Source of the DNA: a virus
Taxonomy: Duplodnaviria > Heunggongvirae > Uroviricota > Caudoviricetes
Virus record (IMG/VR): IMGVR_UViG_2671180676_000009
DNA length: 34,976 nucleotides
Strand: one strand, 5' to 3'
A model generated the notes under the pieces. The model had not been told where the DNA came from and did no database searches. It was given only the letters and a program-made list of their open reading frames with translations. Positions 3,049-31,668 of the stretch are shown here, in pieces (within the stretch, counting starts at the first letter, position 1; the number at the start of each line of letters is the position of its first letter). The translations under genes and the position numbers were made by a program.

Positions 3049-3348
3049 AAAAATTCCTTAATACTGATAACTTGGCGCACTATACACACGTTCCTGAAGA
3101 AAGCTATAGTTTTTTGATGGGGTTGAAGATGGCTGGATGTCTAAAATAAACATTGCTTCATATGTTCAACTATGCGTTAATGATTGCGTCGGTTTGAAGA
3201 ACAGACGATATACGAAGTAGTTTACTAAAGCAGTTCTCATTTCAGGTGTTATTCACTTATTCCTTCTTTGAGTCTCTCCAATTAAGTACGAAGTCGTTTC
3301 TGTTATGCAAACCATTTATGCCGAAAGGCTCAAGTTAAGGAATGTAGA

Positions 3349-3564
3349 ATGTCAAATAAAATGACTGGTTTAGTAAAATGGTTTAACGCTGATAAAGGTT
3401 TCGGCTTTATTTCTCCTGTTGATGGTAGTAAAGATGTGTTTGTGCATTTTTCTGCGATTCAGAATGATAATTATCGAACCTTATTTGAAGGTCAAAAGGT
3501 TACCTTCTCTATAGAGAGTGGTGCTAAAGGTCCTGCAGCAGCAAATGTCATCATTACTGATTAA
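3349..3564 (+). CDS. cspB: Cold-shock protein CspB (71 aa)
   Basis: [38 protein letters not shown]...; long AT-rich leader upstream typical of cold-inducible csp genes. Confidence 0.95.
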
Positions 3565-3845
3565 AATTCATCGCTCGTCTGTATACGATAACGAAGAAGG
3601 CTGATGCCTGAGTAGAGATACGGACAGAGTAGTGAATATTGGATCTCTTTAATAAAAAGTAAGGAGGTCCAATACATGAAACAATGGCTAGCATATTTGG
3701 CAAAATCTTAATCAGGAAAAGTATGCTAACCATTGTGGTGAAGTGCAGGTTTGCTGCATGAATAGTTTTACAGCAGAAGCTAACTGCTGGCATGGCAAAA
3801 CAAAGTGCGTAAGTGGATGACTCCCACAAAAAGCACCACAATCTC

Positions 3846-4849: not shown

Positions 4850-5873
<1,024 letters not shown>

Positions 5874-6234
5874 GGTAATATTAAATCGGAACATTTACAT
5901 CGCGGAATGTAAAATTTAAATAAAAAGGACTCTTCCATGAGCCAAAATTCCTGAAATCTTAAGGGTAAGATAAAAGGTCTTAATCAGAATGACACGTTTT
6001 ATTAATAAATAAAGCTATTCTTTCATTGCTGTGTTTTTCTTTACAAAAGTAATCCTTGCTATGGGTGGTTAATCATGCGTTAATGGTGTTCTGGTTTGTT
6101 ACAAATTTATCTGAAGCAGTCATTGTTATAATTTTATTATTTGTACCTCTTGAGATTTCCTTGTTGGTTTTTCTCTCTGATATTTTTTTCGGACCATTCT
6201 GCCCAAGGGCTAATTTCTTCAAAAGGTAATAATT

Positions 6235-6447
6235 ATGTCTAACAAAATGACTGGTTTAGTGAAATGGTTTAACCCTGAAAAAGGTTTTGGTTTCATCACG
6301 CCGAAAGATGGCAGCAAAGATGTGTTTGTCCATTTCTCAGCAATTCAGAGCAACGATTTCAAAACATTAACTGAGAATCAGGAAGTTGAATTTGGTATTG
6401 AGAACGGACCTAAAGGTCCTGCCGCTGTTCATGTAGTGGCGCTTTGA
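6235..6447 (+). CDS. cspI: Cold-shock protein CspI (70 aa)
   Basis: [42 protein letters not shown]...; long AT-rich 5' leader. Confidence 0.95.
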
Positions 6448-6652
6448 GGTAGACAATATTACAAACCATATTCACTTTAGATGCCCGTGTTGTCATGGTT
6501 CCCAGTATAGAACATCATCTTTTGATGTTTCTGACATGAATCCTTTCGGGGCAAAATGTATCTTTTGTAAATCAATGATGATTACATTTGATAATATTTC
6601 ACAATACTTAAATGCCAGCCGTCTGTCGTTGGATTTAAAAAAGTGAAAATGA

Positions 6653-6675
6653 AGGCTCCTTCGGGAGCTTTTTTG
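6653..6675 (+). terminator. Rho-independent terminator
   Basis: Hairpin GGCTCC-TTCG-GGAGCT followed by TTTTTT. Confidence 0.6.
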
Positions 6676-6718
6676 CTTGGTGTCTATTCGATGGATACTC
6701 ACATACTACGGTAACATC

Positions 6719-6949
6719 ATGAAAAAAATCATAGTTTTTTTTAACTCTGAACCAGCAGTGGTAGTGCCAGCGATGACTGGAGTTAACACCATCATGCGTG
6801 AATATCCAAATGGCGAAAAAACACACCTTACTGTAATGGCCGCAGGGTTTCCATCTCTGACCGGAGATCATAAAGTCATTTATGTAGCCGCGGATCGACA
6901 TGTTACTTCAGAAGAAATTCTGGAAGCAGCAATAAGGCTCTTGAGTTGA
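6719..6949 (+). CDS. Hypothetical small protein in the cold-shock locus (76 aa from MKKIIV; possibly ynfN/ymcE-like)
   Basis: ORF in the position occupied by ynfN in K-12 Qin (between cspI and gnsB); start chosen at first ATG after the terminator; weak RBS. Confidence 0.4.
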   Translation: MKKIIVFFNSEPAVVVPAMTGVNTIMREYPNGEKTHLTVMAAGFPSLTGDHKVIYVAADRHVTSEEILEAAIRLLS

Positions 6950-7120
6950 TTTGATGCTATTGCATTGATAATTCAGGAAAATTCTCTTTGTCTGCTTGTG
7001 TAAAATTTAGACTATCGTATGTTGATTATTGCGATGTTTCATCTTATCTTTTACACGTTTGCACCATATAATCGACTTACTGTGTAACTGGAAAGTCATA
7101 ACAGACTAAAAGAGGAAATG

Positions 7121-7294
7121 ATGAATATTGAAAACTTAAAAACAAAAGCAGAAGCAGATATTTCTGAATATATAACAAAAAAAATTATTGAACTTAAGAA
7201 AAAGACCGGGAAAGAAGTTACCAGTATTCAGTTTACCGCACGGGAAAAAATGACGGGTCTTGAAAGCTATGATGTCAAGATTAATTTAATCTGA
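7121..7294 (+). CDS. gnsB: GnsA/GnsB-family small protein (57 aa)
   Basis: MNIENLKTKAEADISEYITKKIIELKKKTGKEVTSIQFTAREKMTGLESYDVKINLI; GAGG 6 nt upstream; below the 60-aa cutoff of the ORF track. Confidence 0.7.
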   Translation: MNIENLKTKAEADISEYITKKIIELKKKTGKEVTSIQFTAREKMTGLESYDVKINLI

Positions 7295-7445
7295 TGTATT
7301 CAATAATAAAATTTATCCATAAACCTCGTTTTTACGGGGTTTTGTTATATTTGAATGGTTCCGAATATCTAAATCACAATTGTTGATGGTTTTTATTAAA
7401 CCAATGCAGTCCGGCTCAGGAGTGAGAGAAGCCGGACGTTATGGT

Positions 7446-7856
7446 TTAGCGTGGTAAGATCTGTGTAGTTTTCTGGATGCTTTCAGTAAATAGTAATGAA
7501 TTATCAAAGGTATAGTAATATCTTTTTTGTTCGTGGATATTTGTAACCCACCGAAAAACTCCTGCTTTAGCAAGGTTTCTTCTGTATTCCTGAAATGTGA
7601 TCTCTCTGGATTTCAGCTTATTAGAGGTCGTTTCTATAAGATGCCTATCCTTTGAAAATTTGACAGACACAATGTTTTTTAGGCCCTTTAATAACACTGT
7701 ATTATCATTTTTTAATACAATATGAACATTCTCTGTGGCTAAATAGTAAATGTAATGTGAGACATTGTGACGTTTTAGCTCAGAATAAAACCATTGATAG
7801 TTTAAATCGTTTCGAACTTTATCAAATATTTGTTTAAAAATGACTACCTGATCCAT
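7446..7856 (-). CDS. ydfO: YdfO-like DUF1398 protein (136 aa)
   Basis: [40 protein letters not shown]...; GGAAGG 7 nt upstream of ATG at 7856. Confidence 0.8.
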
Positions 7857-7913
7857 AGATAAACCTTCCATGTGATATGAGGGGGCGTAGTCTGCACGAT
7901 TATCTAAATTGCT

Positions 7914-8147
7914 TCAATCTGGTCTGACCTGTTTTCTGAGCAATTCAGTAATGTCACTCTTTTCTTTGTTTGCTTCAGAAGAAACTCTTTTTTCTGAGCA
8001 CAGTCTCCGGCGGCAGGCTTCAATGACCCAGGCTGAGAAATTCCCGGACCCTTTTTGCTCAAGAGCGATGTTAATTTGTTCAATCATTTGGTTAGGAAAG
8101 CGGATGTTGCGGGTTGTTGTTCTGCGGGTTCTGTTCTTCGTTGACAT
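7914..8147 (-). CDS. ynfO: Arc/Mnt-like ribbon-helix-helix protein (77 aa), homologue of the rightmost lambda ORF
   Basis: N-terminal basic tail then IRFPNQMIEQINIALEQKGS-GNFSAWVIEACRRRL (beta-strand/helix/helix pattern as in Arc); lies immediately beside cos. Confidence 0.7.
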   Translation of the reverse strand: MSTKNRTRRTTTRNIRFPNQMIEQINIALEQKGSGNFSAWVIEACRRRLCSEKRVSSEANKEKSDITELLRKQVRPD

Positions 8148-8346
8148 GAGGTTGCCCCGTATTCAGTGTCGCTGATTTGTATTGTCTGAAGTTGTTTTTA
8201 CGTTAAGTTGATGCAGATCAATTAATACGATACCTGCGTCATAATTGATTATTTGACGTGGTTTGATGGCCTCCACGCACGTTGTGATATGTAGATGATA
8301 ATCATTATCACTTTACGGGTCCTTTCCGGTGATCCGACAGGTTACG

Positions 8347-8358
8347 GGGCGGCGACCT
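8347..8358 (+). other. cos: cosN cohesive-end sequence GGGCGGCGACCT (12-nt lambda-type 5' overhang)
   Basis: Exact lambda left-end sequence GGGCGGCGACCTCGCGGGTTTTCGCTATTTATG preceded by the lambda right-end sequence ...CCGACAGGTTACG. Confidence 0.9.
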
Positions 8359-8530
8359 CGCGGGTTTTCGCTATTTATGAAAATTTTCCGGTTTAAGGTG
8401 TTTCCGTTCTTCTTCGTCGTAACTTAATGTTTTTATTTAAAATACCCCCTGAAAAGAAAGGAAACGACAGGTGCTGAAAACGAGCTTTTGGGCCTCTGTC
8501 GTTTCCTATCTCTGTTTTTGTCCGTGGAAT
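8359..8530 (+). promoter_or_regulatory. cosB: terminase small-subunit binding repeats R3, R2, R1 between cosN and Nu1
   Basis: CGTTTCC-type repeats at about 8399-8416 (R3), 8457-8471 (R2, inverted) and 8496-8512 (R1), as in lambda. Confidence 0.75.
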
Positions 8531-8535
8531 GAACA

Positions 8536-9055
8536 ATGGAAGTCAACAAAAAGCAGCTGGCTGACATTTTCGGTGCGAGTATCCGTACCATTCAGAACTG
8601 GCAGGAACAGGGAATGCCCGTTCTGCGAGGTGGTGGCAAGGGTAATGAGGTGCTTTATGACTCTGCCGCCGTTATAAGATGGTATGCCGAAAGGGATGCT
8701 GAAATTGAGAACGAAAAGCTGCGCCGGGAAGTTGAAGAACTGCGGCAGGCCAGCGAGACAGATCTCCAGCCAGGGACTATTGAGTACGAACGCCATCGAC
8801 TTACGCGTGCGCAGGCCGACGCACAGGAGCTGAAAAATGCCAGAGACTCCGCTGAAGTGGTGGAAACCGCATTCTGTACTTTCGTGCTGTCGCGGATCGC
8901 AGGTGAAATTGCCAGTATTCTCGACGGGATCCCCCTGTCGGTGCAGCGGCGTTTTCCGGAACTGGAAAACCGACATGTTGATTTCCTGAAACGGGATATC
9001 ATCAAAGCCATGAACAAAGCAGCCGCGCTGGATGAACTGATACCGGGGTTGCTGA

Positions 9056-9081
<26 letters not shown>
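8536..9081 (+). CDS. nu1: Terminase small subunit Nu1 (181 aa)
   Basis: MEVNKKQLADIFGASIRTIQNWQEQGMPVLRGGGKGNEVLYD... near-identical to lambda Nu1. Confidence 0.95.
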
Positions 9082-12762
<3,681 letters not shown>

Positions 12763-31093: not shown

Positions 31094-31668
31094 TGGCATT
31101 CAGAATGAGTGAACAACCACGGACCATAAAAATTTATAATCTGCTGGCCGGAACTAATGAATTTATTGGTGAAGGTGATGCATATATTCCGCCTCATACA
31201 GGTCTGCCAGCAAACAGTACCGATATTGCACCGCCAGATATTCCGGCTGGCTTCGTGGCTGTTTTCAACAGTGATGAGTCATCGTGGCATCTCGTTGAAG
31301 ATCATCGGGGTAAAACTGTTTATGACGTGGCTTCCGGCGACGCGTTATTTATTTCTGAACTCGGTCCGTTACCGGAAAATGTTACCTGGTTATCGCCGGA
31401 AGGGGAGTTTCAGAAGTGGAACGGCACAGCCTGGGTGAAGGATACGGAAGCAGAAAAACTGTTCCGGATCCGGGAGGCGGAAGAAACAAAAAACAACCTG
31501 ATGCAGGTAGCCAGTGAGCATATTGCGCCGCTTCAGGATGCTGCAGATCTGGAAATTGCAACGGAGGAAGAAATCTCGTTGCTGGAAGCATGGAAAAAGT
31601 ATCGGGTATTGCTGAACCGTGTTGATACGTCAACTGCACAGGATATTGAATGGCCAGCACTGCCGTAG
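31093..31668 (+). CDS. tfa: Tail fibre assembly chaperone Tfa (191 aa)
   Basis: ATG overlaps stf stop (TAATG); [48 protein letters not shown]... as Tfa proteins. Confidence 0.9.

Follow-up and report, generated by a model that had tools for sequence, protein, structure and literature searches.

ynfO and ydfO beside cos in a Qin-like prophage appear to be mosaic neighbours rather than an obligate pair

Introduction

The genes ynfO and ydfO, together with the families to which they belong, are already catalogued in E. coli K-12 and have homologues in phage lambda. In the K-12 Qin prophage, ynfO (b4533) and ydfO (b1549) lie between nohA and gnsB, while the DLP12 prophage has the lambda layout, with ybcV, ybcW and ylcI in a row and ybcW on the opposite strand between the other two. 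Their position recalls lambdoid "morons" such as bor, small AT-rich accessory genes of variable presence that sit between the lysis genes and cos and run opposite to late transcription. Unlike ynfO, however, bor is a lipoprotein gene with a known phenotype.

Among proteins, P22 Arc, Mnt and CopG resemble YnfO in their small size, N-terminal arm, strand motif (NLRWP in Arc, NIRFP in YnfO) and two helices. Asn11 and Arg13 of P22 Arc are base-contacting residues. The similarity of YnfO to Arc is not significant, and YnfO has neither a Mnt-like partner nor an antirepressor gene downstream. Antitoxins of the ribbon-helix-helix (RHH) type (ParD, KacA/TacA, MazE and the C-terminal domain of HicB) join an RHH domain to a C-terminal helix, a layout that YnfO appears to have; in contrast to them, YnfO has no conserved partner toxin, its tail is variable and its gene is dispensable in TraDIS.

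Here we compare these systems with a copy of the two genes in a 34,976-nucleotide Caudoviricetes record (IMG/VR IMGVR_UViG_2671180676_000009), which we call the window. An earlier note on this DNA had proposed that the genes form a two-gene module, either an antitoxin/toxin or a repressor/effector pair, in a hotspot for accessory and defence cargo.

Results and discussion

The genes lie at the cos end of a Qin-like prophage

The window is a Qin-like lambdoid prophage in which the terminase, portal, capsid and tail genes are all intact, and many E. coli chromosomes match its DNA at 99.8-99.9% identity. The features around the two genes are as follows.

7118-7294, plus strand: gnsB, convergent with ydfO
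7446-7856, minus strand: ydfO coding sequence, 136 aa, DUF1398
7857-7913, minus strand: ynfO-ydfO spacer, 57 bp, in frame with both genes
7914-8147, minus strand: ynfO coding sequence, ATG start, 77 aa, DUF3950 / YlcI-YnfO family
8347-8371, plus strand: lambda-type cos left end, with the nick between 8346 and 8347
8536-9081, plus strand: nohA, a Nu1-type small terminase gene, divergent from ynfO
9056-10981: large terminase gene, directly beyond nohA

The coordinates, strands, gene names and 57-bp spacing given in the earlier note agree with the open reading frame list and the RefSeq annotation, and the core sequence that it quoted for YnfO is correct. Its placement of the genes beside cos also holds, as the lambda left-end sequence GGGCGGCGACCTCGCGGGTTTTCGC begins at 8347 (window position 8346 corresponds to lambda 48502) and the nick is 199 bp from the ynfO ATG. 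RefSeq assigns the same two proteins, WP_001368374.1 (ynfO) and WP_000373090.1 (ydfO), to K-12 MG1655 and to the 99.9% identical locus of a wild isolate. In K-12 Qin the proteins, their spacing and orientation and the neighbours gnsB and nohA are identical to those of the window. K-12 Qin, however, is cut short after nohA, where a tail-gene fragment follows, whereas the window keeps its terminase, head and tail genes, and the window prophage is thus a much less decayed relative of Qin (9056 onward, against 7337-8819 of K-12 locus L002).

To the left of the two genes are the lysis genes and a set of small plus-strand accessory genes, cspI, ymcF, ynfR, ynfN and gnsB. ynfO and ydfO are the sole minus-strand genes in this area, so that their transcription opposes the late operon. 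The GC content is 31.6% in ydfO and 44.4% in ynfO, compared with a window average of 51.6%, and an AT-rich island of 27-40% GC spans cspI to ydfO (5800-7900). A terminator-like hairpin lies on the gnsB side of ydfO, at 7321-7342. The ydfO start at 7856 is preceded by a Shine-Dalgarno sequence, GGAAGG, at 7864-7869; an alternative in-frame ATG at 7871 would give a longer, 141-aa frame (7446-7871, minus strand).

A single TGA is the only break between the ynfO and ydfO reading frames. A database cluster of 761 sequences (P0122, 233 aa) presents a ynfO-ydfO "fusion" that reads this TGA as Trp. We rejected a natural YnfO-YdfO fusion as a gene-calling artefact: the TGA is there in the one locus that was read (L003, 1274-1975), and none of six P0122 loci translates to a fused protein with table 11.

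Rfam and tRNA scans give no match in the ynfO-ydfO region. Elsewhere in the window, Rfam finds cspA-type thermoregulator leaders ahead of cspB and cspI (3188-3580 and 6090-6474) and, close to its other end, an IS009 RNA (31436-31634). Between cos and the Nu1 start there is a 26-nt inverted repeat, 81% complementary, at 8455-8511. Its position and CGTTTCC cores would fit the terminase-binding sites of lambda cosB.

The arrangement is a mosaic variant of the lambda right end

Aligned with lambda, the locus contains the following segments.

7985-8346: lambda-like block, 98% identical to lambda 48141-48502, comprising ynfO codons 1-54 and the 199 bp to the cos nick
7931-7984: Qin-type segment, 54 bp, coding for YnfO residues 55-72

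The 54 bp sits where lambda has 613 bp (47528-48140) carrying lambdap79, and on its other side 7427-7930 is 84% identical to lambda 47023-47527. Lambda carries both families, as lambdap78 (DUF1398, 79% identical) and a 64-aa YnfO homologue (NC_001416.1 48109-48303, minus strand). Residues 1-54 of this homologue are 98% identical to YnfO, and its tail is different from and shorter than the Qin-type tail. Between the two lambda genes lies the opposite-strand gene lambdap79, and the gap is 613 bp longer than that of the window. Lambda and DLP12 otherwise share with the window the strand, the cos-side position and the upstream element of the DUF1398 gene. The RefSeq lambda record has no CDS for the 64-aa YlcI/YnfO frame, which lies just inside the right cohesive end.

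The homology ends precisely between codons 54 and 55 of YnfO, so that the junction itself created the 23-residue Qin tail. In the Qin lineage, 54 bp stand in for the 613-bp lambdap79 segment, which leaves ydfO 57 bp behind ynfO and gives YnfO a new tail. A 2026 preprint reports that lambda evades the Vulcan defence by losing lambdap79 through recombination with Qin, and this recombination yields exactly the arrangement seen in the window.

The two families are not inherited together

Phage records hold many more YnfO relatives than DUF1398 proteins (152 and 43 records, respectively). We sampled 80 diverse IMG/VR loci, 75 of which are informative; a locus was counted as lacking DUF1398 only if its downstream sequence reached 1.2 kb. 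YnfO occurs without DUF1398 in 52 of these 75 loci and with it in the remaining 23. The cargo downstream of YnfO varies and includes p79, a PerC-like gene and a lipoprotein gene, among others, and in the Stx phage BP-4795 a solitary YnfO gene separates Rz from an unrelated terminase set. The reverse comparison gives the same picture: 24 distant DUF1398 loci (25-38% identity), from Klebsiella, Kluyvera, Pseudocitrobacter, Raoultella and Salmonella, each hold the gene singly on the chromosome, in surroundings that are unrelated, and in none of them is there a YnfO-like frame nearby. Two further loci (L305 and L307, 2501-5216) carry a lambda-type ylcI and a lambdap79 homologue, with a DUF1398 gene absent within 2.5 kb, and so show one more mosaic version of this region.

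The adjacent ynfO-ydfO layout is nonetheless common, and it recurs with differing ydfO alleles, for example in PhiR49_1, where YnfO is 97% and YdfO 76% identical to the proteins of the window. YnfO is thus the constant gene at the genome end of lambdoid phages, and YdfO belongs to a varied set of interchangeable cargo genes downstream of it. The two-gene module of the earlier note does not stand up to these counts, to the lambdap79 gene that separates the families in lambda, or to the solitary chromosomal DUF1398 genes; what does stand is its description of the cos-side hotspot, which is indeed a variable cargo site but says nothing specific about this pair.

Outside lambdoid phages, a second YnfO branch, about 40% identical, occurs in PICI-type phage satellites across Enterobacterales, as lone opposite-strand genes inside an operon that runs from AlpA to primase. 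In capsid-forming satellites (L237-L241, 5001-5204), the DUF3950 gene lies alone between AlpA / AntA-like genes and the primase gene. Within the roughly 110 bp upstream of the satellite gene there are three copies of GTGTACCC(C/T)CAC, two direct and one inverted, which look like a candidate operator.

We therefore lean towards regarding ynfO and ydfO, which occupy the far right end of a Qin/lambda-type prophage, as accessory genes with separate inheritance, mosaic neighbours that form no obligate pair, and we hold this to be somewhat more probable than its opposite. Both are read leftward from the cos end, against late transcription. The presence of the two genes here reveals nothing new in itself, and the useful outcome is a negative one: "a small RHH gene and a larger gene by cos", taken as a sign of toxin-antitoxin or defence function, fails when phages are compared. 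A puzzle goes with it, namely that the YnfO core of about 50 residues and its upstream DNA are near-invariant by cos despite differing terminase types and cargo.

YnfO probably has a ribbon-helix-helix fold

YnfO matches Pfam DUF3950 (PF13132; E 2.7e-21, 75.6 bits against a cut-off of 25) and NCBIfam YlcI_YnfO_N (NF041551; E 3.3e-9, 36.6 bits against a cut-off of 30). Residues 1-50 comprise a basic arm and then a probable RHH domain, and residues 55-77 form a lineage-specific tail. Among the 120 closest relatives, the first 50 residues, MSTKNRTRRTTTRNIRFPNQMIEQINIALEQKGSGNFSAWVIEACRRRL, are near-invariant, while the C-terminal tails are wholly different from each other. When the lambdoid and satellite branches are aligned, R16, F17, P18, F37, S38, W40, V41 and C45 are invariant.

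In PHROGs, YnfO alone reaches a HicB-like family at E 0.01 and an Arc-like one at E 0.32. Of 58 relatives, 26 match the HicB-like RHH PHROG (best E 2.2e-5) and five match the Arc-like phrog_228 (best E 1.3e-4), with others matching further Arc-like PHROGs; besides these two types, no annotated PHROG family type recurs among the 58. Seven relatives match Pfam HicB_lk_antitox. A YnfO profile search of PDB sequences returns no match. With hhalign, YnfO and Arc align in the expected register, NIRFP on NLRWP, but not significantly (E 0.011, probability 3.8%). Asn14 and Arg16 of the ...RNIRFP... segment fall on Arc Asn11 and Arg13.

The AlphaFold2 model of the YnfO monomer (mean pLDDT 70) has an unstructured basic arm, then the IRFP segment, then one helix at 19-32 and another at 37-73. 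A single chain would not be expected to form the strand, which belongs to a dimeric beta-ribbon, and the model does not form it. Nearly all of the top 50 Foldseek matches of this model in the PDB are RHH proteins, including ParD, MazE9, Arc, NikA, NikR, KacA, CdbA, PrpA, VapB, CopG, HicB and MatP, with a best E of 0.46 and none significant. Arc structures are among the top structural matches of YnfO, and Arc-like PHROGs are matched by its relatives. Each line is weak by itself, but they agree: the PHROG matches of the relatives, the helix layout and the types of Foldseek match make an RHH fold probable for YnfO, as the earlier note had suggested.

We propose that YnfO is an RHH DNA-binding domain of about 50 residues with a basic N-terminal arm, and that, as a dimer or tetramer, it most likely represses transcription from the 199-bp region before cos.

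Upstream DNA suggests a possible separate ydfO promoter and possible read-through

Two segments of non-coding or overlapping DNA may bear on regulation.

7889-7933, minus strand: element ahead of the DUF1398 gene, shared by Qin and lambda in the alignment
8217-8249: inverted repeat ATCAATTAATACG-N7-CGTCATAATTGAT, 70-102 bp upstream of the ynfO ATG

The 199 bp from ynfO to cos, including the inverted repeat at 8217-8249, are near-invariant in all lambda-type variants compared. The repeat is the sole operator candidate for YnfO and is where we would place its binding. In K-12, an RNA-seq analysis lists ybcW-ylcI as a convergent excludon with overlapping transcripts, indicating that ylcI is transcribed in a cryptic prophage.

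Over 74 bp, the DNA ahead of ydfO is conserved with that ahead of lambdap78, which has no YnfO gene before it, and the same element also precedes ybcV. In the window, this element runs across the end of ynfO, taking in its final codons and its stop. It contains a palindrome, GGTCAGACC, at 7921-7929, the core of a PdhR-box-like 17-mer at 7917-7933 that matches the box at 10 of 14 positions, and a -35-like TTGAAG (7912-7917) separated by a 17-nt gap from a -10-like CAGACT (7889-7894), the hexamers matching consensus at 4/6 and 3/6 positions. A consensus scan of 7100-8600 finds no sigma-70 promoter. We infer that the element is ydfO's own candidate promoter, weak and activator-dependent. PdhR SELEX sites have been mapped upstream of both ybcV and ydfO, and ybcV mRNA is down 10-fold in a pdhR deletion mutant by RT-qPCR (PMC7660256).

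No terminator is predicted in the ynfO-ydfO spacer (7857-7913), so transcription that starts at a ynfO promoter may continue into ydfO and contribute to its expression. Co-transcription of the two genes, and control of ydfO by YnfO, are accordingly possible. A stronger version would be an operon in the style of Arc and Ant, in which YnfO represses its own upstream promoter, ydfO is an effector on the same transcript, and YnfO sets how much YdfO is made in lysogens or shortly after infection. The arrangement of the genes on one strand, 57 bp apart and with no predicted terminator between them, is consistent with such an operon, as are the RHH-like character of YnfO with its Arc-like beta-strand motif, the conserved inverted repeat upstream of ynfO and the recurrence of the adjacency with other ydfO alleles, such as that of PhiR49_1. 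Yet the pairing is facultative, with an intervening gene in lambda and DLP12 and other cargo or none behind most YnfO genes; ydfO keeps the upstream element that it has in lambda, where no YnfO gene comes before; and both the YnfO tail and the junction have the look of side effects of a rearrangement. We consider this operon unlikely. The dedicated repressor/effector pair raised in the earlier note is not supported, as the families are not co-inherited and an opposite-strand gene separates them in lambda and DLP12.

YdfO is an orphan alpha/beta protein without a catalytic signature

YdfO matches Pfam DUF1398 (PF07166; E 1.5e-46, 157.7 bits against a cut-off of 22) and is identical at 135 of 136 residues to chain A of PDB entry 2HH8. 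This entry is an NMR structure from structural genomics with no function assigned, and the structure of YdfO has thus been public since 2006. The fold is an orphan alpha/beta fold. A HMMER search of 1.84 billion cluster representatives yields only 200 DUF1398 clusters, many of them fragments, and YdfO has no detectable relatives of known function. In the divergent full-length members of the family, no second Pfam, NCBIfam or PADLOC family recurs, and only L27, Y35, T41, A96, G99 and W103 are invariant. Judged by its residues, this set does not look catalytic. Given the lack of conserved catalytic residues, partner binding would be likelier than catalysis for YdfO.

Published observations on the gene are few. 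The gene is stress-inducible: its transcription is described as strongly but transiently induced by ionic liquid, and overproduced YdfO is cited as making cells more resistant to peroxide. By CRISPRi, the lambda homologue lambdap78 is non-essential and dispensable for plaque formation. In E. coli B-1109 (locus L322, 547-1734), IS1 lies in ydfO, which is in two pieces, and ynfO is intact. The reports on ydfO deal with overexpression and induction only.

A bolder generalization would make YlcI/YnfO a conserved class of RHH regulators, placed as lone opposite-strand genes at the first-injected cos end of lambdoid phages, lambda among them, and in the satellite AlpA operon, that control genome-end transcription and cargo such as YdfO, while YdfO itself would act by binding to modulate the host's stress physiology or its immunity. 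We offer this as speculation and think it quite improbable in full.

Defence and toxin-antitoxin functions are doubtful

Lambda DNA is injected right end first. The two genes would therefore be the first to enter the cell, a mild positional hint of a defence role in which these first-injected genes guard the incoming phage or the lysogen from other phages or from host immunity. ynfO and ydfO are indeed the outermost genes at the right cohesive end and are transcribed inward from it, the Rz-to-cos region is a variable cargo site, and the adjacent lambda gene lambdap79 triggers Vulcan, from which phages escape by losing lambdap79 through recombination with Qin. However, this is an argument from position only, lambda can form plaques when CRISPRi is directed at lambdap78, and no PADLOC model covers either protein: a search of PADLOC-DB 2.0 returns no family at E <= 1 for YnfO or YdfO. 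A role as defence or counter-defence cargo thus seems doubtful, and the defence cargo to which the earlier note alluded finds no counterpart here among PADLOC families.

The remaining proposal is a type II pair, in which YdfO would be a growth-arresting toxin and YnfO an RHH antitoxin that binds it through the C-terminal tail, with the operon autoregulated. Its appeal lies in the order of a small RHH gene followed by a larger gene on the same strand, 57 bp apart, in the identity of the best full-length Foldseek matches (ParD, KacA and 1Y9B, all RHH antitoxins with a C-terminal helix, at TM-scores of 0.53-0.59) and in the weak matches of YnfO relatives to HicB-like families. The genetics of K-12 argue otherwise. 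In published TraDIS data (PMC5821084 supplement), ynfO has an insertion index of 0.13 and ylcI one of 0.36, and both are called non-essential, so insertions are tolerated in ynfO while ydfO is intact. The same study treats antitoxins as a category apart when it compares sets of essential genes. It gives ydfO an index of 0.03 and calls the gene essential, by TraDIS only. Indices are also low for gnsB (0.05), ynfN (0.05) and cspI (0.08), as well as for ybcV (PMC5821084), and since these genes are low too and the DNA around ydfO is rich in AT, the scarcity of insertions in ydfO more likely reflects a regional cold spot. The cold spot at 5800-7900 is probably also why ydfO is called essential by TraDIS only.

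Further points against a toxin-antitoxin pair come from the proteins and their genes. The YnfO tail, which would be needed for contact with a toxin, is the least conserved part of the protein and differs in lambda; the 57-bp spacer holds promoter-like elements, which is atypical of such pairs; IS1 breaks ydfO in some natural strains; and YdfO overexpression is described as protective and not toxic. YdfO matches no toxin family in Pfam, NCBIfam, PHROGs or PADLOC. With families that are not co-inherited, a dispensable ynfO and a YdfO without toxin similarity or catalytic signature, the antitoxin/toxin pair that the earlier note had considered is very improbable.

Lambda control DNA in database records

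A set of contigs of about 3.5 kb is filed under taxa that have nothing to do with each other, such as Brevibacillus, Flavobacterium, Cohnella and Pedobacter; one of them is CP136411.1, "plasmid unnamed1" of Arcanobacterium hippocoleae. Four of the five such contigs that we checked, CP136411.1 among them, are 99.8-100% identical to lambda 45400-48488, and the fifth, of 2.6 kb, is 98.9% identical. These contigs are almost certainly sequencing control DNA, which accounts for the YlcI and DUF1398 records ascribed to S. aureus, Bacillus and the like.
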